Of a DNA stretch of 64,000 nucleotides, positions 1 to 39,120 are shown piece by piece. Made by a program: the position numbers and the translations under genes. Positions within the stretch are counted from its first letter, which is position 1, and every line of letters starts with the position of its first letter. The DNA is from Patellaria atrata CBS 101060 (taxonomy: Eukaryota): NCBI GenBank assembly GCA_010093705.1, contig MU006095.1, forward strand, positions 1,157,016-1,221,015, in the 5' to 3' direction. The notes below the pieces were generated by a model, which did not search any database, was not told the DNA's origin, and saw only the letters and a program-made list of their open reading frames with translations.

Positions 1-659
1 TAGGAGGAGTAGAAGCATAAGGGTAAAAGGGAAATTTAGAGGAAAGGGGAAAGGGGGGAAGGGGGAGGAGTAGACAGTAGCCATATCGAAGGGAGGTCAG
101 AGATGGATAGGACGGTATAGACGGTATAGGGACCGGAGGGTATTTCGAAGACTCTGGATTAGTATCAAGGCTCAGTCAGTCACTCATCACATCTCAAACC
201 ACACACGGGGAAGGAGATGATATCCAGTAACCGTCCTATAAGGTCTGGTTCTACACGCAAACTAGCCAAATCACCAATTCAGTTCTCGTTCCAATCGTGT
301 ACAAAGGGAGAGAGGGGGGGGGGTAATCACTGGGGTGCACGTTCATATGATGCATGGAGGCAGGCAAGGGCAGGAAAAGCGGAACGGAGAATGGAACTAA
401 GGTGTAACAGATCAAATGAATGATCCATCACTCCATCTCCGAACACACCTGATTTGAGGTCTCAGCGAGAAGCCGAGACTTCCAAAAAGTTAGATTTACC
501 GTCGTCTCAAGGACGGGGTAGATAACCTCCTACCGTGGAGCGTACCCCTATTCATATGATAAAAACCGTAAAAGACGCCGTGGGTTATGCAACCAATTCC
601 ACCCAAATTAACACCCCCGCGAAAGATAATGAAAGTAGAATGAATCCGAGATAACATCC

Positions 660-3600
660 TCAGAGCTTCCCGTAATGAAGCAACACGACCATTATGACAA
701 TGATTGCGACCAGAAGCACGCAGAACACCGAACCGACGTAAAGTGCGGCCCTCTTTTGCTGATGTCCAACGTGTCTCACATCTCCATTGGTAATGGAGGC
801 CATCACCCAATCTCCGGCTCCAGCATAGAGACCGATCAAGAAGGGTGGGAAGAGGCAACAGGCTGCAAAGAGGATCCAACTCCACTTCCTCTTCTGGGTG
901 CCGATATGAACGTTACTCTCCGTAATGATGGAGCTCGACCGACGTTTGTTATGACCTAGAGTCGGGAGACTCATGCGAACCGGCCTAGTTCCTACAGTTG
1001 GGAAGGGAAAGCTGCCTGAAAGAGGGGTGCGAGTGTCTGTGGACTCGATAAGATCGCAGGGCACAAGGTGCGACAGACGAGTATTGTTGGTTTGACCCGT
1101 ATCGTTGGTATTCGCCGACCTGAGACTGTATGTCGGCGTGCCGAAACGTCCATCAGGAGTTTGTATCGGGCGGAGATTGAGCGGTTTGAGCTCTTTCTGG
1201 TGGAAAACAGAAGCGCGACGTTGAGAGCGGGTTCGTTGCGCGTTTCGAGTCGCGGAGAGAAGTTGCTCCTGCTTGCGGCGGGCTGATTGTGCTTTCTCTA
1301 TGTTTAGGGACGATTTAGAACCAGTAGGGGGAAGCTTCGGTTGGTGCTTGGGAGATGCATCGGACTGGGCCAGTGGCGAGCTCTTGAACGGCTTGCTGCT
1401 AGAAAGGAAGAGAGAAAAGGATTTGGAGCGCGGTGTCCCTGGTGTGCTGCTGAAATCAGCGATACTACTGCCCGTTTCGCGCATGTTGGTGCCATTTGGA
1501 GTACCTGTAACATTTCCTTTTGGGCCAAGAACCGTATACTTCGCGAAAGATTCTTCGCAATTTTCCGGAAGTGGACTTGAAGAGCCTGATGGATCCTTTG
1601 CTAAGGAGTTCATGAGATGCTCATACGAACTCGCCTGTGCTCTAGGATCCCGAGTCTGTTTGCGGGCTGCTCGATGCCTTTCTTCACGCACAACTTCAAC
1701 GTCAAGATCACGCTCCATTTGACGCTCCTCGTCTAGCTCCGCATAATAAATATTATCGCTTGGACCTGAATTCAGCAGTTCCTGTTCCACCTTTGACGTT
1801 ATTTTTGAACGTTCGATACTGCTAAGACGCATAACGGCGCGTTCATGATCCGACAATCCATCAGGACTACGCGTTCGTTGCTCTTCATTGACGAAATCTG
1901 CTAGGTCGTTATATAGACCATGCTCTGCAACTAGAAATGCCCTCTCGCTCGGATCAGAGGTGAGAGTTAAGGCCGGAGGGGAGGATTTGAATGGATGGAC
2001 GTGGTCTGCCGATAGAGGGGTAGGTTGAGATTGAGATGGGCGACGAGCACCAGAAGGAGTTGTCCTCAGTGGAGTCAATACATTCCGAACAGGGAATCCT
2101 ATACCATTTTGGAAGTTGTATGCGGGACCAGGAACTGGTGGGATTCGATAATCACTGAGATCTGGAAGACTAGGTAGACTCTCCGACGTTGTAACGTTTG
2201 CAATACTGTCGTCCATGCTAGGACGAGAGACGGAGGGTCCACTTTGCTCACCAATAGTCTCCCACTCTTGCTCATCGAATTCATCGGGCATATCGGCATA
2301 AGAATCTTGTGTTTCAGAAGAATGACGCTCTTTACCATCGGAGAGGTGTGAATGGCGCCTTTCCCGATTGATGAAGAGGGCTCCAGGACCAGGAGACCGT
2401 TTTCTCCAGATCTCCGGAATTTGATCTAGATCATTGGATTCTTCTATTTCCTGTGCGGTCGCTTTGGACTTTGATTCTTGTCTGAGCTTCATATTCGCCG
2501 CATGTTCACTTGGTGAACTCGCCCTAGAAGACGAGTCGAGGAAATCATGAGTGTTTGTTCGAGGGGCGAGACGAAAATTTTGTCGTTCAACTTCACCGGC
2601 ATCGTTGATCCTATTTTGCTCTGGAGACGCAAAGATGTTCCTACTACTTCTCTTCTCTTCTCTGAATCGATTCAGGTCGTCAATAAATGCTTGCTGATAG
2701 CGTGAGACTGGCTCATTCGGATTTCCTGATCTAACCGCCGGTGGTCGAGAGTATAATCGGCTTCCAGAAGGAGATCGATAGCCAGCCTGTCCTTGGAAAT
2801 CATTTGGAAGCGCTATGGCTGATCCCCTCGCAGAATTCATTGACTCGACTCTAGATGTGTTATCTTTATCGAGTCGTAAAAGATCACGCGTGTCTCCATA
2901 AGACGAGCCGTAAGTAAGTGCGGTCGACTCATCAGGTACATGGCGAGCAAACGCCGGGTGGGGACCACCTAGATTTTCGAGAGAGACCCCAAATGCAAGT
3001 AGCTGCGACGATGCCACTGATCTACGAGTTCCCGCAGGCGAGAATATCTCACTATCGGGAGAGTTATGTGCATGTAAAGTGGTCTGGCTGGGATGCTGTT
3101 GAAGCCCGAAATCGAATTTGCTATAACCTGATGTCGATGGTAATTGAGTTGTTCTCTCAGTCGTGCTGGTTTCCGCTTCCTTTGTCAGGTCGAATAGATC
3201 CGGGTCCGTGTTTCCCTCACCCTGGTATCGATCAATGATGCTGTCCAGGGTGTTATCTTTCGTGTTACTAGGTAGACTGGGTACACGTGGGGGTTGAAAG
3301 CGTGAGAGCTCTTTCTGTATCCGATCACGCGAAGCTCTGTGGGTGTGCGTGCTTGTGGTGTCATCCTCAGCAAAGGGAAAGGGATATGAGCTCATTACTT
3401 CACTGGAGTAGTCCGTTTCTCCGACCTTGACCCCGAAAGGAACACTTCGGCGTTTGGAATTGTAGATACTTGTAGGGTATATTGAAGCTGAGTCAAAATC
3501 CCCCCCATGCGAAGAGGAAGGGTAGATCGAATCCGCGTCGTTGTATCTGTGAGGAAGGACGTTTTCAGACATCGACATCATAGGAACGCGAGGAGCGACT

Positions 3601-11020: not shown

Positions 11021-12367
11021 CTAAGCGTCACCTTTGCGCTTCCTCTTCTTCCTCTCGGCAGGCGCAGCGACAGGCTCCGGTTCAAGCTCCGGTTCCTCCT
11101 CGACCTTCTTCCCCTTCTTCGGCTTCGTCTTCTTCGCGACCTCGGGGCTCTTCTCCTTGGTGCTGCTTCCGGGAAGCGGGACCGAGGTGTTGGGCTTGAC
11201 GGCGCTCGGGGGAGCTGGGCTGTCGGATGGGACGACGCCGACGCCGTTCTCCTTCGTCTTGCGGCGCTTGGAACCCTTCTGCGCTTTTGCTGGGGGTGGG
11301 GTGGGCTCCTTAGGAGGGGGTGTGGGTTCCTTTTCGGATTCCTCGGCGTCGGAGGATGAGGCTTCTTCTTCGGCGTCTGAGGGGACCGAGGCGGCGTCGG
11401 GGGCCTCTTCGGTGACTAGTTTCGCCGCGGCTTCGGTGTCGCCTTTGCTCTTTAGGTATTCGGCCATGTCGATTTTCCATTGGGCGTGCGAAGTCTGGTA
11501 GGATTCTTTCCAGGCCTAAGGAATGGGGTTAGTACTTACAGTCCAAGATTGGGGGCCGGGGGGAGGGACTTGGATATGAGGGAAGGACGGTGAGAAGAGA
11601 CTTACAGCTTTTTCAATTTCGGGCATGGCGTTCCATCGTCTGGTGGCCTCTTCGCCGATATCACCAGGCTTGGCGGTAGGTCCCAGGTCACTCTTGATGA
11701 TAGGACGTGCATGCTGGGCATAAAGAAAGTAGGCAGTCAAAGGGCGTGGAGGTGCATTGGGATCCCTCTCTTTCTTCGCCCTCTTGCGTTTAGGTTTGCC
11801 TTCAGCCGTGACGCCGGTAGGGAGTTGCAATCCACCAGTAAGGGCGTTGGAGATATTCAAGGTGTCGAGGGTGGTGAAGGGACCGCCGGCGAGTATTCTT
11901 TGCGAGTGACCGAGGAACGCGGTGAGCAATTGCTCGCAGTTGTTCTTGAGCGCGGTGATCCCGACGACGACCTGCAGTACAAATTGTGTGTTAGGAGGCT
12001 GCTTCGCAAGCGCTAGCAAAATGGAAATTTGAGAGCGGACTTGCTGGAAACGTGAGAGTAGCTCGCTGCAAGACTCGATGAAGGCGCGAGTTTGCGCTGG
12101 CGAAAGCGACATTTGCGCGCTCATTGTTGTTCGTGGAGATATAAACAACGGGCAATCCTAATATCGTGACGCCGATGGTGAACAACAAGCAAGAGGCGAG
12201 GCGCAACGTGCAAACTGGCTCTTTTCGCGCGACTTGGAAAGCGGGACAAAAACATGGCGAGAATTAGGACTTACGGCATCACGGGTGCGAGTGAAATCAT
12301 CAATGGAGATGGAGTCGACCTGCTGGCCTGGCTCTTTGGCTTTCTTATCCTCTTTGGGACGCGTCAT
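11021..12367 (-). CDS. HMG-box chromatin protein (Hmo1-like), multi-exon
   Basis: KKERDPNAPPRPLTAYFLY...WNAM HMG box; acidic/Lys-rich tail; exon 1 MTRPKEDKK...TRTRDA|gtaagt. Confidence 0.9.
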
Positions 12368-13059
12368 GATAGACAGACGCGAATGTTGAGATGGAATCAA
12401 ATCAAAGAGGTTGGTGGTCGTGAAGTTGGGCGTGGGAGGTGCCAAAGGTTTTGGTGTTCTTGGGCGGAGGAGGTGCGACAAGTTCGGGGGTAGAGGCTCT
12501 TATACCATTCCCAGCCCAGCACGCGCTTTCTAGTTGAGTGCCCAGCCTACCTAGACACCACCACCTATTTTTGCACACACACACCCGACGCCTTTTGTTG
12601 GGTCGAAACCCCCCGGGGACCCCCCAGCCCGGCGCTCCCCTTTCAACTTTTCTGTACTTTCGGGCGGTAGAAGTAGGGGTTGTTTGCAAGCCGGTGAAAG
12701 CTCCAGCAAGATCGGCACAGTCGTAACAATATTTGGGCATCCTTAACCCTGAAGCTATGCCTACTTTGAGCCTGTTTATTTGAGCTTGTGGCACCCCTTG
12801 AGATTGTTTTTCCGCTCATTACTTTGGAGCCCTTGGAGGCGCACATTCACTTCACGCTTTCTACAGCAACGCGCGGGTAACGCTAGAAATTCCCTGTTTG
12901 CTTCCGGTGTTGTTGACCGTAAATTTGAAATTTTCCATTTTCAACCGTATCAAAGCATAGTAACCTTGAGTTGTAAGTTTTGAACGCCCACTTTCTCACT
13001 CCTCGGCGCGAAGTAAATCAAGGATCTTAATTGCGCGTAATATTTGCGTAACAAAAATG

Positions 13060-14620
13060 ATTTGTTCTGAAGTCCTAATAACAATACTATACACATAACT
13101 CCACTTGGTATCATGCTATTTCGCCAACGCCTTTTACCAAGCAACACCGTACCCATTTGCAACTATTCGTGCAGTGATCCAATCCACTGCCATCCCCTAA
13201 CTCCCAATGCAAATGCAAGCACTCTATACCGGGCTGCGAGGTGCCACACCGATTTCCTTCCCCCTAACCCAGTATAACCACCGCGTGATTTCACTTAAAC
13301 TGGTGTTGACCACCATGACCTGAGGGCGGACCATAATTGTGCATTGGTAAACCTTGACCTTGACCCAAGTGGTTCTGAACGTCGGGACGGTATCTGTGGA
13401 ATCATCAGTCAGTCCCTACGCGCATTCCGGTAACCAGAGTTACAATCTCCCATGACAGTGTGCGCATCAAACGTACTTGATATCCTGGTAAAAGTTGCAG
13501 ATATGGCATCCTACTTCCCTCCAGGGTTTGAATGAGAAAGGCACAATTGGCTTTGCGAACGGGTTAGTTAAGGAAGTACGCGTTTGACGATATCGGTAAA
13601 CGTACGATGAAGCAGAAGGTAAACCATTCCCTACAGCGCGTTAGACTAATGTATTCCCGTGCATGAGGATCGCCCCCCAGATATCAAAACTGACCATCGC
13701 TTGTAGACGCGACCGCTCATGTTACCGCAATTCTGACATTGGACAGTAACGTTCTCGTATCCTTTCAATCTGCTTGTGAAGACTAGATATATCGTCAGAG
13801 GAAATGATTCCAGCATAGGGATTTACATATGAGCTCTTACTATGCGTGCCACACGTAAAGAAGAAGAACATGATGGTTTATGTTTGGGGACTCGAGCGTC
13901 TGCGCGGAGTATGCTGGAAGCTCTGAAGGTCGCAATGAAGCTTTTGGGATGATGATATTCAGATGAAGCAGTGCAGAAGTGTAGCCGCCAGCTAAAGTAT
14001 CCTGAGGAGAGGCGATTCTCTTGGACTTTATTAGGTTTTATTCAACGTTAGAGATGAACTATGTTCGGCTTCTCTTGTATTGAGCTTGGCCCGAGCTTGG
14101 CCGTGACGACAGGATACTCAGCCACATTTCTGGGAAACTGGCCACGGATATGACAGTCAACATCAAACATTTCATGTCAGTTCATACTATTCTAACAGAC
14201 CATCCAACTCTCCAAAGAATATCTAGGGACATAAAAGGAAGCAGTAGACTTGATGGTGCGTCGAATAAGGTCCTGACTGTAGAAAGACATTGCTGCTATC
14301 CTAGACACAGTATCTTTGACACTCACTGAAGTTTCGTTAGCAAGACCAGGTGTAATTTCCACGTAGTGACTTTATGTCTAGTCCATATGGGGTTTTGGGA
14401 TTTCAATTCGATGTGGGTTCAAGACAACGACACCGCTCATGTTAAGGGATATGAGCAAGTGATTTCAATTGACAAAACAACGCCGTCCGCGCCTGGTTCA
14501 AATATCACTTGTGGATGGGATAAACGGAGGCAGGTGAGTGTATTTCATAGGTCGGAGTTTATTCGACTAGGGAACTAGACTATCCTACGATAATGAGAAC
14601 GACTAGTCATAAGAAACAAT
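13060..14620 (+). ncRNA. TER: Telomerase RNA candidate (5' end approximate)
   Basis: Template CCCTAACCC at 13262-13270, pseudoknot at 14006-14237, CR4/5-like three-way junction at 14319-14541, ATAAGT at 14619-14624; no long ORF in the region. Confidence 0.72.
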
Positions 14621-28937: not shown

Positions 28938-30950
28938 TCAAACTAGGACAAATGCTTTCAATTCCCTATCTACCATGTTATTCAGATCCTCAACCTCCTT
29001 TTGCAATAAGTCATCTATTTCCCTAACCCAGATTTCCCCGTATGCTCTTTTCAGTGACTCCATTGCTTCCCCATTCATGAAGCCATGAACGAAGCATCTT
29101 CCTATAAATTGATATCGCACTCGATTCGGTTCAACGCTCGACGAGTCGCACCTTCGGAGGACAAAGGGGGTCGAACTTCCCAGAGCAATGCAGATGATGT
29201 CACTTTCCTGGGCCATACTCGGACCTTTCGCGAAATATCCTTCAGGTGTGACAGAGAACCTCCAGCCTGGCAAGCGACCATTCAACACCGACCGACGTCT
29301 TCAATATTTCTTCTGTCAGTGCCTCAGACCTCGATGTTTCCGAATAAGCTCCTTTTGAGTGAATTAGCCAATCTTCGGTAGACCCACCAGTGGCCAGTAA
29401 GGTTTTCATGAAAGCAACTAGTATAGGTTCACTGGTTGGCTCGTATGTTTCTTTTCTGGGTAGAAGAGAGCCCCATAACTCAGCAGCGTCCTCTGGATCA
29501 ATTTCGAATCTGAAATCCTTTGGGTTAAGTCGTAGGTTCGATCCGGACTCTCCCACAGAATCTAACAATATTCCCTTAATTGTCAGTTCACCCGGGAGTT
29601 CCTCTGGGCTGCAGTTTGATGCAACTGAACTTAATGCGGAGCAAGTCGTAACAGATTGGCCATCTGCATTTCAGCAACTGCGTAACTTTTCCCATGGCCT
29701 ATATGGATTAGCAAGATCTATCGCAGCAATAGTCAGCATTGAGACGCGCAGAGGTGATTTGCGATTAGCTGGAACATTGTCTATAATGTCAACGCTGTCA
29801 AGGTATTCGTTAAAGTCGGGAACCCAGCTTGGAATACCATTAGTATGTTGGCGTTTTTATATTGTGGATCTGCTTTAGATAATCGAGACAGCGGATCTTT
29901 GGAGCGCGATGTGCGATAACAGATTTCAAGATGCTCCCGTAGAGGGTTTGAAGCGAAAAGTTATAGTCCACAACAATGGATGGGCATACCTGCGAGATAT
30001 TTAACAGCGAATAAATCTTGTCCTAAGGTAGTGCAGCTCGGCGACGTTGGAATTGCCATAGTAATTGATTCATCCGATATGGATCTTCTTTCTTCCGCTG
30101 CTTAAGAATTTCTGCAATGATCCTTACCCTGATTCATATTGGAAATTTCGGTAATGATCCCCGCTGGTATATCTTCGCCGGTCATTCCACCTGCTTCAGA
30201 CTGCTAGAAATCCCATATTTTGGAGAAAAGGTTTGGGAGAGAGCGTCTTTGTGAGCTATAAGGACTCTCAAAAGGGATATTTATGCGGTCATGAAAAAAC
30301 CATACTGTCAGAAAGCGAAGCATAAGGTATCTCCACCCCCTGGTATAAAACACAAGCTTGCTATCCAGAAAATACCTCCTGCACTACCCAAACCCTCGTC
30401 CACCAAGTCTGTGCAAAGACACCTTCCCAGTATGCCTTTGGGGGTTGCACCGTCACGTTGCCGAGTGGAAACATCCATAAGCCAAACCCATACCCATTCA
30501 GCACCAGAATAAACCCGGTGCATAATCTTCACCTGCTCGTTCCTTTCCTCTATATCTTCTTGATTGATACATATAGCATCTGCCCATATCCTGAACCTAT
30601 CGGTTCGTTTATGGGCGCGAAGATAGCGCATGGCATCTGCCAGATTTTTAGTCACCTCAAGCTTGTTTCTACCACTGTACAGGTCATCTTCTCTAGGACG
30701 GTTACCGTTAGTGACTACCATGTCTTTGTTCGAAGGATCTCCCCAAATGTAAGACAAAGCATGGGATGTTGGAGCATCCTCAAGAGAAACCGTCTCTAGG
30801 TTATAGAGTAGCGGATCCGAATCGTATTCACTTGCCAGAAGTGTGATTAAACGTGTTTGCCTAGAAGGATCTGGTAGGGCGGAGTAAGCGTACTTGGGAA
30901 GGGTGTTAGGCAGGCCATCTTCAGTAGGTTCAAAAATCCGCTCGCCATCT
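28938..30950 (-). pseudogene. HET-6-like heterokaryon-incompatibility gene, disrupted
   Basis: HET motifs ALSYIWGD, IWADAICINQEDIEERNEQV, PSWVPDF and FIGRCFVHGFMNGE; in-frame stop before DKIYSLL, frameshifts, and no ATG in the HET frame. Confidence 0.8.
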
Positions 30951-31819
30951 CTTAGGTGACCAGCTCGGACCGAGAAAGTGCAGGAATCACTATTATACAG
31001 TCATTAGCGTACTCGATCGACCACGTACCAGTCTCAGATTCAAGTCAGCTACTAAACAAGAGATATCAGCTTCTGGATAAAATGAAACAGCTGTATTTGA
31101 GCTGAACTAAACCTGTAGGGTGCGCTAACATAATAGGATAGAACTATTGGTTACTGTCGAAGGAGTAGTCTTGAGCAGTTGACAGTAATTCTATCTCACC
31201 AATTCAACAGTAGTATGAAGAAACATCAATTATCAGGTTATACCAGAGGACGGTTTATCCGCATCTCAGGAAAAATACTACGGTGATGGTGCTAGCGAAA
31301 GGAACTGAGAGACGGGCTATGCTAGAATTTAGCAACAAGCCTAGAGGAATAAAGATACGAAAAGAATATGTTAGTCATATCCTGACTGGATGTCCTACCC
31401 GAAACATCTCCTATGCCACGAGCTGTGCTAGTATTAAGTATCTAACATATGGTTGTCCTATTAAGAACTGTTATTTCTACTTTACCCGTGAGTCCAAGAG
31501 GCAGCAAGTTCAAGAAATCCAAAAAAAAGAATATAGTAGAACTGAGTATCTACGAAGTGGAAAGATGATGTTGATATTGACTAAGATCTGATATTGCGCC
31601 AGATAGCGCTAACTCAAAAGCTCTAAATTGACCCCTTTGACCCTCCGCAACGAATTCTACTTCATTAAGATCGGAATATCTGTTGATAATTCTAGATATA
31701 GAACTGCGTGATGCAAGCTTTAGGACTCGTGAGAGTTTAACGAAACATAATTTTAGAATACGGATTTAAAGGAAGCTACACCTCTTAAGGCAGGGCGAAC
31801 TCATAAGGTAATATATCAC

Positions 31820-32623: not shown

Positions 32624-34155
32624 CTATCCCTGACCGTTCGTACTTCGCTTTTGAGAAAATCCTAGACCTTTCCCGCCAGTCCATATAGCGGTCTGTTGCC
32701 TCTTAATCGGTGACAGTGCATCCTGCTCTCTTCCCCCGTCAGTCCTCTTATCTTCCAAATCAACAGTCTGAGTCTCATTATCGGCCATTTCTTCCCTGAT
32801 CGCTCGGGTAGGTGAATCAATCGTCCTTGCTCTCTTTCGCGCATCATGTTGGTTCTTCCATTTCCTCGCCACCCCGTGAGCACTTGTGATACCAGAAAAG
32901 CTCGTTCGGCCGGAACTGCGAAGCTTCCGCCAGTCGACACGCTTGACGGGAAGTTTCGAATCCTTCGCTGCTTTAGCAAGTGCTCGAGAAAGAGTCTTGA
33001 TCTCTTCATCACTAAGGCGGGAGACAGTGAGAGGAAGACTTAAAGTTAGCAATGAGCGAGTCTGGTCCTGGATGAACTCTCTTCTGCGGTCCTCAGGAGA
33101 GTTTTTGAGGGGTCCTAGTTGGATATGGCGGTCGTAACGTTTGAAGCGGGACCATATCTGGGATTGAAATTTCTTGCGCGCCTCTTGGACGTTGATACTT
33201 TCGCATAGTTGGCGGGTCGTAAATTGGCCCCCCTCCGATTCCTCGAGTAGTTTTGACAGGGATGTGATGAGGGCACGGGTGAACGATTTAGGTCCCGGAG
33301 CCTGGGTGGGTTTATCGTGCCCGCTAGCTGTTAGCATCTCGTATGTTCGTGGATCCTGGCGTTGAACATTCTTGAAGATGTTGCTCGCGTAGCAACAGTC
33401 AAAGATGCTCAGCATGTCGCAGTCTGAATGTTCGATAAGGGAGTTCTCCGCTCGATTCCATACTGCAAAAGCAGGATGTGCGTCTACTGGTATCTCGTCA
33501 ATGTCCGATGAACTAAACGATCAGTTTCGTCGTTCTATGAGACCAGGCGTTGGTCCTTACGCGTGTAACTTCAGTTCTTCCGTTTTGTAAGTGAAGCTTC
33601 CGTGCCCGGTGTAGTACACGATCAGGAGATTGTGTGGACCATTATGAGCGTCGACGAAGTTAATCAGCCCCTTTTCGAGTTGCAGTTGCGGCCGAGCTCT
33701 TGGGGTGTCTGTATTTAACTCAATCACTTCGATAGAGTAATGAAACTTTGCCTCGAAGAGTTCTTTAAGCTCTTTGACCTAATCAAAGTAAATATCACTC
33801 CAAATATGTCAAGAAACAACTGGTAACATACCTCTTTGCTACACTCCAGTTCATCAATCGCGTCTGCCCACTTGATGATAAGAACAGCGACCTCCTGATA
33901 CCCTAATGGAATCTTCATTTCCGCACACATGGCCGTATTCCAAGATATCTGCATCTTCGAATTCTCTTCCTCGGTGACCAAGTCAGGTAACACAACATCG
34001 GGTCTCTCATGGTTGCCATTGGTTAGGCTTGGTTGCCTTCTTCGTGGAGATGTTGGTTCTATGGTAGCGGAACCAGAAGCTTCAAAATCGATCTTGCCGT
34101 CCTGTCCTTGCTTGGAAGACACTTTCAGATCAGTAGCCTTAATCATTGGAGCCAT
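32624..34155 (-). CDS. Caspase-like (peptidase C14 clan) protease, 3 exons
   Basis: YQEVAVLIIKW, LLIVYYTGHG (His) and LSIFDCCYAS (Cys) catalytic dyad, SFTRALI. Confidence 0.85.
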
Positions 34156-35510
34156 TGTGATTTTACAATATAGAACAATGTTTAATGCAGTGGCTAGGCT
34201 TCCATGAAGGATAGCCGCGTCTAATAGACATCAGAGTCTTCATAAGGCTGAGAAGGTAAGGTCAGTGGCCCCCTTCCCGTCTGATAGATCGTCCATCACA
34301 ACGGGGGCCAAATTGTGGAGCCAGGGGTCCGATATTGCTTGAAACATATCAAAAGCGGGTAGAAATAGCTGACCAAATGCTTGTTACCACCTTCTGGTCT
34401 CGTAGCTGACAACAGTATTATTGTTTCTCGCCTGCTGCCTAGAATTTACTTACTTTCGAGAGTTTCCGGTCAATAATTGAACGCATGTAAGCAGCTCAAC
34501 TCCAGAGGAGCGAATCTGTCGTCTGGCCAATTGTCTTCCCGCTAATGCAATAAGCCCCTCCAATTGGGGGCCAAAAAATCTTAAGACCCTCAACTAACAT
34601 CTGCACTCGTAGATGGCGCAGTTAAAGCATAGTGTCATTGAGGCCGTCCATAACATGGGGGTATTGCACCGCTCATAGCATGGGGCTCTTTAGGTCCGTC
34701 TATGACTCTATAATAAGGGATATACCTTTATGCGAATCCCAAGGCATAAGTAGGACCCATCTTACGGACGCCCGACTCATAACAATTTGATAGCCGTACG
34801 CAATTTATACATTGCTCCAAACATAAGCCTAGTGGACCTAGGCGAGACGAAACGCAATAGCGAGGCGAGATGACCGAAGCAAAGCTGAATGTAACCGCGA
34901 AGCATTCCATACTATGTTAGTTCTAGCTGACCAAAGGCATACAGATGTTCGAAGATGGAAACGAAATTTTAAAGTCATCGGTGGACAAAACCAAAGCGGC
35001 TCCTCCTGTTGGTGATAACCCTTTGCAGTGTGAAATGCATAGTCTGATGTGGTTTCCAGCTTCCAGCAGCCTACAAAAAAAACGAGCGTGTCGGCCTATC
35101 CATCATTGAGAACGGCAGAATCCTGACAAAAAAGATGGTGGTCGTGGAACCTGTGCCAATGAACGGTCAGTGGTGGTATCGGCTGAAGACCCCAGGCGCA
35201 ACAGTGAATTACAAAGACGAGCTGGGAGGGGACTTGTTTTCCGAGGGCAATCTTGTTGATTAGTTGGTTAGGAGACGATCGTCCGGCATGGACGGTTTTG
35301 GTGAGGCGGTATGGGCGCATTTTGCAGCACAGCCTCAGCAGAGGGGGTGTTATTGGGGGCTAAAGCGTAGCCATTTCAGTTCACCGGTGGCACAGGAAGG
35401 CTGTGAACTTTGTTGCTTATAGATCTCTCATAGCCGTCGGAGTTTTTTGCACAATAATTGATGATATCTTTTTCTTAACCAAAAGTTTTTTTGCCTTATT
35501 TTGCTTTGAA

Positions 35511-36858
35511 ATGATGGCTGCTGGTACGGCGTCCCTAACTTTTGTCGATGAGAAGTTTGACCCTTCAACACCAAGTACTGTCTCGACAGGCGTCTTCGAG
35601 AAACGTTACAATTATGACTGCGAAAATGGAACAGTCACCAGTCCACCAGTAAAAAGTTTTTGGCCCCAGCCCCCAAACTTCCGAACAGCTTTTTTCTAAC
35701 CGCTAGATAGAATCGTGGCGCTCGAGAATAACAATGTCAAGGGAGCCGAATCCCGATCTCGATACAACTTCTTTAATTACCAGAACGGTGGAAGATAGTC
35801 CCAATGGCTATCCTCGCCTGGCCGAATTTTTCGCTAGTGATCACAGTTTCAGTTGCTATCGGAGCTTTGGATATCTTCATGCTCGTGTGCTTCTCAATCT
35901 CCAAGATAAGATCGCTACCTTAGAGCGAGAGCTTGACAGAAGAGACAAAGCTACGAATGATTGTGGTGACGGAATTCGTCTTCAATCTCGTGCTAAAGAC
36001 ATGAAGCTAGACGCAAATGAAACTCTGGAGTTCCAGGAGCGTAGAGAGTATGCTAAAAAACGCAAAGCAGCAGCGCAAACCGAAGAGCAAATCGAAGCTG
36101 CAGATGCTGAGGTGGAAGAGATTGAAGATGAAATTCGAAACAATCGTCCTCGTGAAGAGATCATCGAAGAAATCCGCGTTACCCTAATGAAGTACGATGA
36201 AGTCCTCGTAAAAGCGAGAGATCTCGTCGCTTTCCAGAAACCCTCGAATCGTGACTACGCTAGTATTCGAAACTGGATCTGCAAGAATAAACCTCTCATT
36301 GAGCGGGATCAAGAATTCGTCAAGCGCCGAGAAGATGTCTTATCTCTGCATAGTGGTCGAGAGTGGTCGGGCTTCGACGGTGCTATCGAATCGCTTCTGC
36401 TCAAGCTCGATTGTAAATTGATTAGGGTGAGTGATCCTCCACCTCCAAACCTGGTTTTCTTAATCTCATCTGTCTGTCATGATACGTGTCCTCTGGAATA
36501 TCGTAACTTACAGATCAAGCAGTGGATGTTTATAACGCCAGAACTCCGAAACAAAACTATGGATGACTCTGTCCATTATTATAGCCGCTCCCGAGTAGAC
36601 ATCTTCGTTGGATTGATCATCACTATAATCATTTTCATTCTCCTGATCTTGCCTGTAGTGGCCATGTATCGATTGACCGCAATGAGCACTTCTCCTAATT
36701 CCACTTTCAACGCCATCGGCGTTCTCGTTGTATTTACTCTCCTGTTCTCTGCAGCTATGTCTCTACTAACGAAGGCACGAAGACACGAACTCTTTGCGGC
36801 AAGTGCGGCTTATTGTGCTGTACTGGTGGTCTTCATCAGTAATTTCAGCACTGCTTGA
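35511..36858 (+). CDS. DUF6594-type protein with C-terminal transmembrane helices
   Basis: GYPRLAEFFASD...YRSFGYLHARVLLNLQD and ELFAASAAYCAVLVVF motifs; upstream exon 35511-35648 splices in frame to 35707. Confidence 0.85.
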
Positions 36859-37267: not shown

Positions 37268-37456
37268 TGTCACGATCTGGATCTATGATCGCAACAGCGG
37301 CTCGGCATACTACGGGTCAGCTAGTCGGCCCGAGCCTTGGCATGGGAAAATATCTCTCCCTTGATTGTAAATAGCTTTCTCTCCTCAACTTATTGTTCTT
37401 AGTCAATTGAGTACTGCTTAAGCCCATGCTACGTATCGAAGATACTCGCTGTGACA
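37268..37456 (+). mobile_element. Solo LTR (short family)
   Basis: TGTCAC...GTGACA termini, 5-bp TSD ATCAG on both sides. Confidence 0.9.
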
Positions 37457-37735
37457 ATCAGGATCATTCTCCCCGCCCCTAGGAAACCGCTCTCGCAGGC
37501 TGTAACTCGGCTGACGTGCGGAAAAACTCAGCTGATGTAGCCGAACCTCGGCTGACGTCGGCAAAACTCATCTAATACAGTAGTTTAGCCGACGTGCGGA
37601 ATAACGTATCGCCGGCCTTAGTAACTACCTTATGTCTCCTTTAATAAACTTAAACTTCTAACGTTAACTTATTCTTCCTATATGTAAATCTTAATTTACC
37701 ATTAATTATATTAATTTTTTTTTATTCAATTATAA

Positions 37736-38773
37736 TGTTACAACGGGAGTTTATACTTATAAAGACAAAACAAGACAAGTCTAGAAACGCGCTGTTACGG
37801 CCACAGAACGCAACAGCGAGCAGTGGGCGAGTGGGAGGAGGAAGACAACCACTCGGCACAACCACGGGAAGAGTCAGTGATATGGAGATCACGTGACTTG
37901 AACGTTTGGACGTTTGGTCGCAGGGAAACAACCAGACGACCAGAACGACCAAACTACCAACAGGAAATGGGACGGTGAAGAAGGAATACTTAAGGACGCT
38001 CCTTTACGCATGTATTTAGATTCTTCGTAGTTCTTCTTACCAATATATCTTTCTATAAGATCGGATGTTACGGTCTACGATTTAACTCTACTTTGCCACG
38101 CTGTTTCCATACAGTACGCTTTGTCTCTAGTTGTGAGCCTTGCCCAAAGAGTTAAGGACTCAGCAAATTATATCGTTAATTTGAAGTGCCTAACTCACAC
38201 GACCTCCTATCATTAACAGAACCTACCTTGAGGTTGATCACGTTAGTGAGAAGCCTGGCGCGTTTATAGACTTGTCTTGTTTTGTCTCGATAAGTATAGA
38301 CTCTCGTTGTAACACGCGCCAGGCTTCTCACTAACGTGATCAACCTCAAGGTAGGTTCTGTTAATGATAGGAGGTCATGTGAGTTAGGCACTTCAAATTA
38401 ACGATATAACTTGCTGAGTCCTTAACTCTTTGGGCAAGGCTCACAACTAGAGACAAAGAGTACTGTATGGAAACAGCGTGGCAAAGTAGAGTTAAGTCGT
38501 AGACCGTAACATCCAGTCTTACAGAAAGATATGTTGGTAAGATTAGAGAGAAGAACTACGAAGAATCTAAATATATGCGCAAAGAGCGTCCTTAAGTATT
38601 CCTTCTTCACCATCCCATTTCCTGTTGGTCGTTTGGTCGTCTGGTAGTCTCGACGACCGAGCGACCGAACGTCCAGATCACGTGATCCCTGGTCACTTAC
38701 TCTTGCCCGCAGATCTCCCGGGTAGTTCCCCTCATCCACCGTCTACGTCCCTTTACAACTTGTGGCCGTAACA
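37736..38773 (-). mobile_element. Solo LTR (long family), interrupted by a same-family LTR
   Basis: TGTTAC...GTAACA termini, TSD TATAA at 37731-35 and 38774-78. Confidence 0.9.
37793..38314 (+). mobile_element. Solo LTR (long family) nested in opposite orientation
   Basis: TGTTACGG...GTTGTAACA termini, TSD CGCGC at 37788-92 and 38315-19. Confidence 0.9.
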
Positions 38774-38937
38774 TATAAATAAGTTTTTAATCTATATTTG
38801 TTTTTTTAATTAATTATAAATTAATTACTTTAAAAATATAGCTAATTTTTTGAAAGATTATATAAATAAGTTCTATTTAATTTCAATATTATAATTATAA
38901 TTAAAATATAATTTTTTAATTAATTTAAATTGTTATA
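38774..38937. repeat. Extremely AT-rich, probably RIP-degraded repeat relic (continuous with ~37625-37735)
   Basis: Near absence of C/G and excess TpA, flanked by LTRs. Confidence 0.6.
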
Positions 38938-39120
38938 TATCACAGCGAGTATCTTCGATACGTAGCATGGGTCAAATCAGTACTCCATTGACTAAGAACA
39001 ACAAGTTGAGGAGAGAAAGCTATTTACAATTAGGGGAGAGAAATATTCCCATGCCAAGGCTCGGGCCGACTAGCTAGCCCGTGGTAGCCCGAGCCGCTAC
39101 TGCGATCATAGATCGTGACA
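38938..39120 (-). mobile_element. Second copy of the short solo LTR, inverted relative to 37268-37456
   Basis: Reverse-complement match along its length; left terminus mutated to TATCAC; TSD not clean. Confidence 0.85.

Follow-up and report, generated by a model that had tools for sequence, protein, structure and literature searches.

Two neighbouring genes in the fungus Patellaria atrata CBS 101060 (class Dothideomycetes) encode a caspase-like protease and a protein of the DUF6594 family with predicted membrane helices. They lie in a 64,000-nucleotide stretch of contig MU006095.1 (GenBank assembly GCA_010093705.1, positions 1,157,016 to 1,221,015 of the forward strand), referred to below as the window. 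Coordinates are positions within the window unless another locus is named. The two genes are divergently oriented, with 1,355 bp between their start codons when exon 1 of the DUF6594 gene is placed at 35511, which agrees with the distance of about 1.35 kb in a preliminary description of this DNA. Comparison with metagenome loci and named fungal assemblies, described below, showed that the pair is a conserved two-gene module of the Pezizomycotina, not a chance neighbourhood. The features of the pair are:

32624..34155, minus strand: caspase-like (Peptidase_C14) gene, 476 aa; exons 34155-33832, 33778-33561 and 33512-32627, stop codon 32624-32626
33392..33604, minus strand: codons of the catalytic dyad, read from the DNA; His167 at 33604-33602 in YYTGHG, Cys221 at 33394-33392 in FDCCY
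35511..36858, plus strand: DUF6594 gene; exon 1 35511-35648, intron 35649-35706, exon 2 35707-36426, intron 36427-36519 (or to 36513), exon 3 36520-36855, then the stop codon
35977..36000, plus strand: basic motif RLQSRAKD (R-L-x-S-R-x-x-D in the family), between the first two long helices of the DUF6594 protein
36586..36849, plus strand: three predicted membrane helices of the DUF6594 protein, AlphaFold2 (AF2) helices 294-326, 331-354 and 359-381 in the numbering of the open reading frame (ORF)

The three-exon model of the protease gene, built from the DNA, is identical residue by residue to a public protein of the same strain (P0001, Patellaria atrata CBS 101060). Pfam assigned this protein to Peptidase_C14 (PF00656) as its sole family, and to neither S8 nor CHAT; the match covers residues 104-294 and passes the cut-off by a narrow margin (26.4 bits against 21.4, E 6.7e-06). 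An AF2 model based on a 40-sequence alignment has a core, residues 60-410, with a predicted local distance difference test (pLDDT) score mostly above 90, and is disordered at both ends. Foldseek returned 326 matches to this model in the PDB at E<=0.001. The best of them were MALT1 and metacaspases of fungi, trypanosomes and plants (E 8e-9 to 1e-6, probability 1.00), which ranked ahead of animal caspases; caspases-7, -8 and -9 were also among the top matches. When a profile of the protease family was compared with PDB sequences, the only match was metacaspase-4, at a weak E of 0.85, with the His motif aligned to the SGHG of the Arabidopsis enzyme. Across the 40 aligned family members G166, H167 and D219 are invariant and C221 is retained in at least 90%, and the Cys motif is also present in two distant paired loci (L016 and L019, see below). 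On this evidence the window protease is a member of family C14, clan CD, with the caspase-hemoglobinase fold. The caspase-fold protease with an intact YYTGHG/FDCCY dyad in the preliminary description is thus borne out by the Pfam assignment, the modelled fold and the conservation of H167 and C221.

Within C14 this protease belongs to a remote branch that is confined to fungi and carries a conserved C-terminal domain of its own, ~110 aa in length (residues about 300-412). The branch is large, since a full HMMER search of the family found 1,506 representative clusters at E<=0.001, 130 of them at E<=1e-30. Asp219 lies two residues ahead of Cys221, a position that we take to be that of the S1-pocket Asp in the Arg/Lys-specific metacaspases and MALT1. 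Because D219 is invariant at this position, the window protease would be expected to prefer a basic residue at P1.

The DUF6594 gene required a new model. The public model, P0009, is 315 aa long, starts at 35734 and removes two in-frame pieces as introns, the first of which is doubtful because it holds the conserved R-L-x-S-R-x-x-D motif. Homology to DUF6594 relatives begins at 35572, upstream of the ATG of P0009; the first intron that we predict, 35649-35706, is 58 nt long with a ctaac branch site, and the second starts, at 36427, at a position common to relatives. The splice signals in the DNA and the conserved coding sequence ahead of the public ATG therefore favour a start at 35511 over P0009. 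Two sequencing runs contain this stretch; both do so as collinear contigs without joints and are most likely DNA. The product matches Pfam DUF6594 (PF20237) over all 238 profile positions (1-238; E 6.1e-62, 210.1 bits against a cut-off of 30), and no other family in this protein scores above the Pfam cut-off; it is a plain member of PF20237, with 319 relatives at E<=0.001. Identity between DUF6594 proteins of different fungal classes is about 50-65%.

In the AF2 model of the DUF6594 protein (mean pLDDT 72.8) the first 60 residues have low confidence and are followed by long helical hairpins and three C-terminal helices, an arrangement that had been anticipated as a disordered N-terminal extension, a coiled coil and two or three C-terminal membrane helices. 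An alignment of 53 sequences showed next to no variation in the three membrane helices or in the KARRHE loop that separates helices 2 and 3; the helices form the best-conserved part of the protein. The loop that joins helices 1 and 2 carries a conserved N-x-T sequon. Based on this sequon and on the positive-inside rule, the large N-terminal domain is likely to be cytosolic, and would therefore be within reach of a soluble protease. The basic motif is located in this domain; its columns are conserved in the same alignment (R 85%, L 89%, S 75%, R 85%, D 96%) and the region is predicted to be helical. Speculatively, the motif region is a candidate cleavage region. Right behind RLQSRAKD, in the region 35950-36140 (plus strand), is an acidic, helical insertion of ~38 aa that is specific to Patellaria (absent from all 52 aligned relatives). 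P0009 drops, as an intron, an in-frame piece that overlaps this insertion but is different from it.

Structure searches placed the DUF6594 protein in no solved fold. Foldseek found no match to the model in the PDB at E<=0.001, and an Atlas feature search that left out DUF6594 itself returned no usable match. A wide VIA search reached a best Z of 9.3, with generic helical bundles, which is below the level of ~13 advised for helical proteins. No gasdermin was among the Pfam, Foldseek and VIA matches, although a missing fold match alone is not decisive. The protein is not a gasdermin, in line with the non-gasdermin partner proposed at the outset; DUF6594 is its only Pfam family, and its model is all-helical with three membrane helices. 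A search of the literature library used here found no paper naming DUF6594 or PF20237.

Evidence for linkage of the two families came from metagenome loci that were selected without reference to DUF6594. Contigs of the Joint Genome Institute (JGI) metagenomes were scanned with a pattern derived from the protease alignment alone, which returned 20 loci (given L numbers here), and DUF6594 genes were then sought in these loci by tblastn with 120 DUF6594 proteins. A DUF6594 gene was found in 10 of the 20 loci, and Pfam matches above the cut-off confirmed the assignment in L003, L004, L006, L009, L014, L016 and L019. After loci with 92-100% identity were merged, 14 lineages remained, and eight of them had a DUF6594 gene. 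Four of the six other lineages are too short to judge: the flanks in L001, L005/7 and L015 measure less than 1.3 kb, and L002 has 0.9 kb on the side that matches the position of DUF6594 in the window. In the paired loci the gap between the protease and DUF6594 genes is 440-2,330 bp. The orientation of the pair varies: L003, L004 and L006 share the divergent arrangement of the window, L012 and L013/14 have convergent genes, and L009, L016 and L018/19 have tandem ones. L004 and L009 are mutual closest relatives for both genes and differ in orientation, yet the genes are adjacent in both. The other neighbours differ from locus to locus, with Pfam matches that include dehydrogenases, parts of polyketide synthases, zinc-cluster factors, glycosidases and a nuclease. 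The same DNA provides an internal control: all nine DUF6594 genes (eight lineages plus the window) lie no more than 4 kb from a protease gene, in sequence that totals 75.9 kb, and none falls in the remaining 98.3 kb. By our arithmetic, clustering of this kind has a probability of about 6e-4 under a uniform expectation.

A second line of evidence came from named assemblies. Names of protease relatives were compared with 120 listed of the 319 DUF6594 relatives, and 18 assemblies appeared in both lists with the same tag prefix. The comparison left out Bathelium, in which the tag prefixes of the two proteins differ; Boeremia, Alternaria, Trypethelium and Diplodia, for which the two families are listed from different assemblies or species; and protease-bearing species with no DUF6594 entry among the 120 relatives. 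Among the matches listed, the two families are linked in 16 of the 18 assemblies. Members of both families are on a contig of equal size in 15, and Venturia nashicola is linked by its tags. Serial locus tags are available for eight assemblies, and the pair is consecutive or two apart in six of these: consecutive in Coniosporium apollinis (H2201_008433/008434) and Oleoguttula mirabilis (LTR36_009081/009082), and two apart in Botryosphaeria dothidea (BOTSDO04343/04345), Venturia nashicola (ATG00035/00033), Xylographa bjoerkii (MMC18_006135/006137) and Icmadophila ericetorum (MMC33_001940/001938). Both genes of Glonium stellatum are on one contig of 18,176 bp, and those of Lindgomyces, with JGI ids 253097 and 253094, are also on one contig. 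The linked genomes span two classes, with Xylographa and Icmadophila in the Lecanoromycetes and the others that were looked up in the Dothideomycetes. Adjacency in other genomes, compared with random expectation, had been set beforehand as a test of the proposed pairing, and the outcome was positive in both the metagenome lineages and the named assemblies.

One gene model joins the two families in a single protein. P0242 of Melanomma pulvis-pyrius has a caspase-like domain at residues 6-226 and a DUF6594 domain at 325-512, with a C-terminal part that looks degenerate; it represents a genuine fusion or else a pair of tandem genes that annotation has combined. Additional copies of the protease lie near some pairs. 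L006 has extra caspase-like fragments at 11756-11884 (minus strand) and 12912-13309 (plus strand), within 2 kb downstream of the paired protease gene, and in Aplosporella prunicola the contig with the DUF6594 gene carries two caspase-like genes. These copies suggest local duplication of the protease.

The preliminary description had also called for a comparison of the phylogenies of the two partners, and this indicated co-inheritance. The comparison used 14 pairs, eight from the loci, with proteins stitched from tblastn matches, and six from named genomes. Pairwise distances of the partners correlate with a Spearman coefficient of 0.68, and FastTree gene trees of the two families have six of 11 splits in common, counted irrespective of branch support; neither value was reached in any of 5,000 permutations or 5,000 label shuffles, respectively, with the caveat that shared ancestry inflates both the tree and the Mantel test. 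Both trees have the same three tiers, across which DUF6594 identity falls to 27-31%. Both also group the Patellaria pair with the Xylographa/L003 pair and not with the other Dothideomycetes, which suggests that the pair has moved or been sorted as a unit.

Other features of the window lie between and beside the two genes:

34945..35263, plus strand: small ORF of ~87 aa between the protease and DUF6594 genes; tentative two-exon model 34945-35011 + 35067-35263
29242..31000, minus strand: disrupted HET-domain gene directly downstream of the protease gene; Pfam HET at E 8.2e-23 on the ORF 30311-31000
37280..39114, no strand assigned: nested inverted repeats; outer arms of 175 nt at 90% identity, an inner near-palindrome with arms of 229 nt at 97%, plus further arms

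The small ORF has no Pfam family. It has a counterpart in the same relative position in the upstream flank of L002 (353-34, minus strand), the locus with the closest relative of the window protease (tblastx 41.5% identity over 65 aa, E 2e-16). We considered the small ORF as a universal third component of the module and rejected this idea, given that it is conserved only between the window and L002 and lacks a counterpart in the remaining paired loci. The locus tags of the pair leave space for one intervening gene in four named genomes.

The HET-domain gene is broken, in line with its earlier description as a pseudogene: its pieces are spread over several frames, a frameshift inside the domain leaves no room for an intron, and a premature stop follows QEVFSG. 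Because relatives of the protease are fused to HET domains, as described below, this gene may be a decayed third member of the module rather than a chance neighbour. However, HET genes are very numerous in these fungi, so a single HET adjacency in the window may be due to chance. A specific relationship between this fragment and the HET parts of the fusions was considered and rejected, as the similarity is generic (28-32% identity). The nest of long terminal repeats (LTRs) that had been described on the other side of the pair did not hold up. No direct repeats of 60 nt or more were found in the window, and the stretch 37280-39114, which is A+T-rich and has no ORF of 130 aa or more, looks like the remnant of a foldback or terminal-inverted-repeat (TIR)-type element, not LTRs. 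Elsewhere in the window are ordinary genes, among them those for urease, enoyl-CoA hydratase, a short-chain dehydrogenase, a nitrilase-type hydrolase, Utp11 and an RRM protein.

Relatives of the protease are joined to partners other than DUF6594. In three of the longer family members, P0184, P0200 (Boeremia exigua) and P0210 (Didymella pomorum), the caspase-like part is preceded by an N-terminal HET domain. The opposite order, caspase-like part then HET, occurs in one reading frame in L010 (7747-10317, plus strand), a lineage without DUF6594. Since both orders occur, fusion must have arisen independently at least twice. L016 has a fusion of the protease with DUF7580 (227-2122, plus strand), with a DUF6594 gene 2.3 kb downstream and a TPR ORF further on. 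HET is an established cell-death domain of fungi. The fusions to HET and DUF7580 thus indicate that the partners of the protease family are swappable and that one of them is a cell-death domain, and the HET fusions lend indirect support to a cell-death link of the protease-DUF6594 pair.

The positive outcomes of the adjacency and phylogeny comparisons argue that the two genes form a conserved module rather than chance neighbours. The fused gene model, and a linkage that persists in different orientations, in different classes and in deep paralogue tiers, speak for a direct functional tie. Related Dothideomycetes make up many of the linked genomes, shared ancestry inflates all the counts, and for nine assemblies the evidence of linkage is the presence of both families on equal-sized contigs of 0.5-2.5 Mb, which is weaker evidence. 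These points would favour an explanation in which adjacency is inherited synteny or chance without functional meaning. We disfavour this explanation and consider it very improbable, because the other neighbours are not conserved between loci, the pair occurs in three orientations and two classes, linkage is found in all three deep tiers of both families, and the 98 kb away from the protease genes contain no DUF6594. The genes could also be kept together by co-regulation within a single pathway, such as one that responds to stress or acts in development, without physical contact between their products. The divergent pairs of the window, L003, L004 and L006, with 1.3-2.1 kb between the genes, are arranged as expected for a shared control region. 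Linkage persists in convergent and tandem pairs, though, where a shared promoter is impossible, and the close relatives L004 and L009 have retained adjacency despite different orientations. Given also that a third small gene lies between the two in the window, and that a fused gene model exists in Melanomma, we regard co-regulation as unlikely.

In the remaining explanations the products of the two genes act together. We favour a model in which the direct target of the soluble C14 protease, at the membrane, is the cytosolic domain of the DUF6594 protein encoded beside it, and in which the activity of the membrane part of that protein is switched as a result; we put the probability of this model at roughly 0.4. 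The protease would cut, probably after a basic residue, in the R-L-x-S-R-x-x-D region, and cutting would either permeabilise the membrane or release the helical domain. In relatives, members of this protease family are fused to a HET death domain instead. This is an attractive model because the closest precedents are protease-substrate pairs, because the predicted topology allows it and because the basic motif lies between the first two long helices. Direct contact, cleavage, the cleavage site, the basic P1 preference and a cell-death outcome are each predicted parts of the model. Alternatively, the DUF6594 protein may be a membrane anchor, a receptor or a regulator, whether activator or inhibitor, that positions or gates a protease whose true substrates are elsewhere. 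Linkage and co-inheritance are explained equally well by such a role; the very high conservation of DUF6594, of its helices above all, suits a fixed scaffold, and the protease has no membrane-targeting or sensor domain of its own. The fused Melanomma model and the HET fusions fit this alternative and the substrate model alike. Known fungal and bacterial pairs of a protease and its neighbour are mostly protease-substrate pairs (PMC8851545; bioRxiv 10.1101/2025.11.14.688446), and a scaffold or regulator is in our view a rather doubtful, if serious, competitor.

Several observations weigh against a protease that acts on its DUF6594 neighbour, or against the linkage from which that model starts. 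Two lineages with good flanks have no DUF6594 gene (L010 and L011/L017/L020), and the listed copies of the two families are on different contigs in Ascochyta lentis and Plenodomus biglobosus. The most distant paired DUF6594 genes, those of L016 and L019, have not retained the RLxSRxxD motif. No sensor, repeat, NOD or membrane-targeting domain was found in the window protease by Pfam or in the AF2 model. In the core group DUF6594 proteins are 46-74% identical, compared with 25-68% for their protease partners. DUF6594 is thus conserved beyond what is usual for immune effectors, with helices that are nearly invariant, a pattern more typical of a conserved cellular function; judged from the alignments, this conservation is explained no less well by a conserved role in physiology than by one as an immune effector. 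Contact, cleavage and toxicity of the pair are put forward here as a proposal. A bolder form of the favoured model, in which DUF6594 would be a new helical family of protease-gated membrane executioners, the linked C14 enzyme its dedicated activator and HET an alternative output, is something we currently doubt.

Regulated cell death in fungi is explained by a few types of executioner, namely gasdermins, HeLo/MLKL-like domains, HET/TIR-like domains and patatin, and the roles of caspase-family proteases in fungi are disputed. A metacaspase-like protease that is tied to one membrane protein in two fungal classes is a concrete protease-partner pair. The pairing provides a first functional handle on DUF6594, a widespread family, and suggests what a large fungal C14 family may do. 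If the executioner proposal were true, that large and unnoticed family would act as cell-death or immune switches.

There are parallels with the gasdermin clusters of fungi, of the het-Q1/het-Q2 and het-Q2-like type. According to Clave et al. 2022 (PMC8851545), these clusters are two-gene arrangements of a protease and a membrane-acting partner, the adjacency of the genes, which are often immediate neighbours, has been kept over long evolution, and the context is cell death. According to the same source, a CHAT protease, from the caspase superfamily, is found in 19% of the gasdermin clusters, among het-Q2-like proteins 93% have long sensor or repeat extensions, and cleavage has been demonstrated for het-Q1 and Q1-6. 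One important difference is the partner, which in the window is an all-helical DUF6594 protein with three predicted constitutive membrane helices and not a gasdermin. The protease also differs; it is C14 metacaspase-like rather than S8 or CHAT, and in place of sensors or repeats its extensions are a disordered N-terminus and the family-specific C-terminal domain. By analogy, the window pair would work in a similar way to the gasdermin/het-Q2 system, but it is not a member of it.

A bacterial parallel comes from defence modules of a protease and an effector, such as EACC1. According to bioRxiv 10.1101/2025.11.14.688446, the gene for a caspase-like cysteine protease adjoins that for a small, non-enzymatic partner whose function had not been known before, and cleavage removes an autoinhibitory part of EACC1 and leads to membrane pores. 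Proteases of this type are described there as having swappable partners, as in the fungal family, and as being fused to immune sensors such as Avs. Besides being bacterial, EACC1 differs in being a soluble monomer with beta-strand-mediated assembly, and it has no relation in sequence or fold to DUF6594. In the main text of two recent surveys, no passage with C14, metacaspase or DUF was present in a 2025 review of fungal cell death (PMC12881547), and none with caspase or C14 in a survey of NLR domains (PMC9815663).

For the protease itself, the closest structures are the metacaspases and paracaspase of C14B: yeast Yca1 (4f6o), the Candida glabrata enzyme (7qp1), T. brucei MCA2 (4afv) and human MALT1 (3v4o), with Foldseek E values of 8e-9 to 4e-8, probability 1.00 and target-normalised template modelling (TM) scores of 0.46-0.62 for the caspase-domain chains. 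The window protease shares with them the His/Cys dyad and the Asp two residues before the Cys. It differs in sequence, with only 12-14% identity and a Pfam score just over the cut-off, and in its own C-terminal domain of ~110 aa; no metacaspase prodomain was found in it. As for the HET-domain proteins of heterokaryon incompatibility, the caspase-like part of protease relatives is joined to HET at one end or the other, whereas the window protease is not fused to HET. The logic of a protease and its partner is already known from these systems; what is new here is a protease-plus-partner module whose partner family matches no solved fold among those searched. The recurrent fusion of the protease to HET suggests a modular logic of a protease plus an output, like that of bacterial and fungal immune modules.

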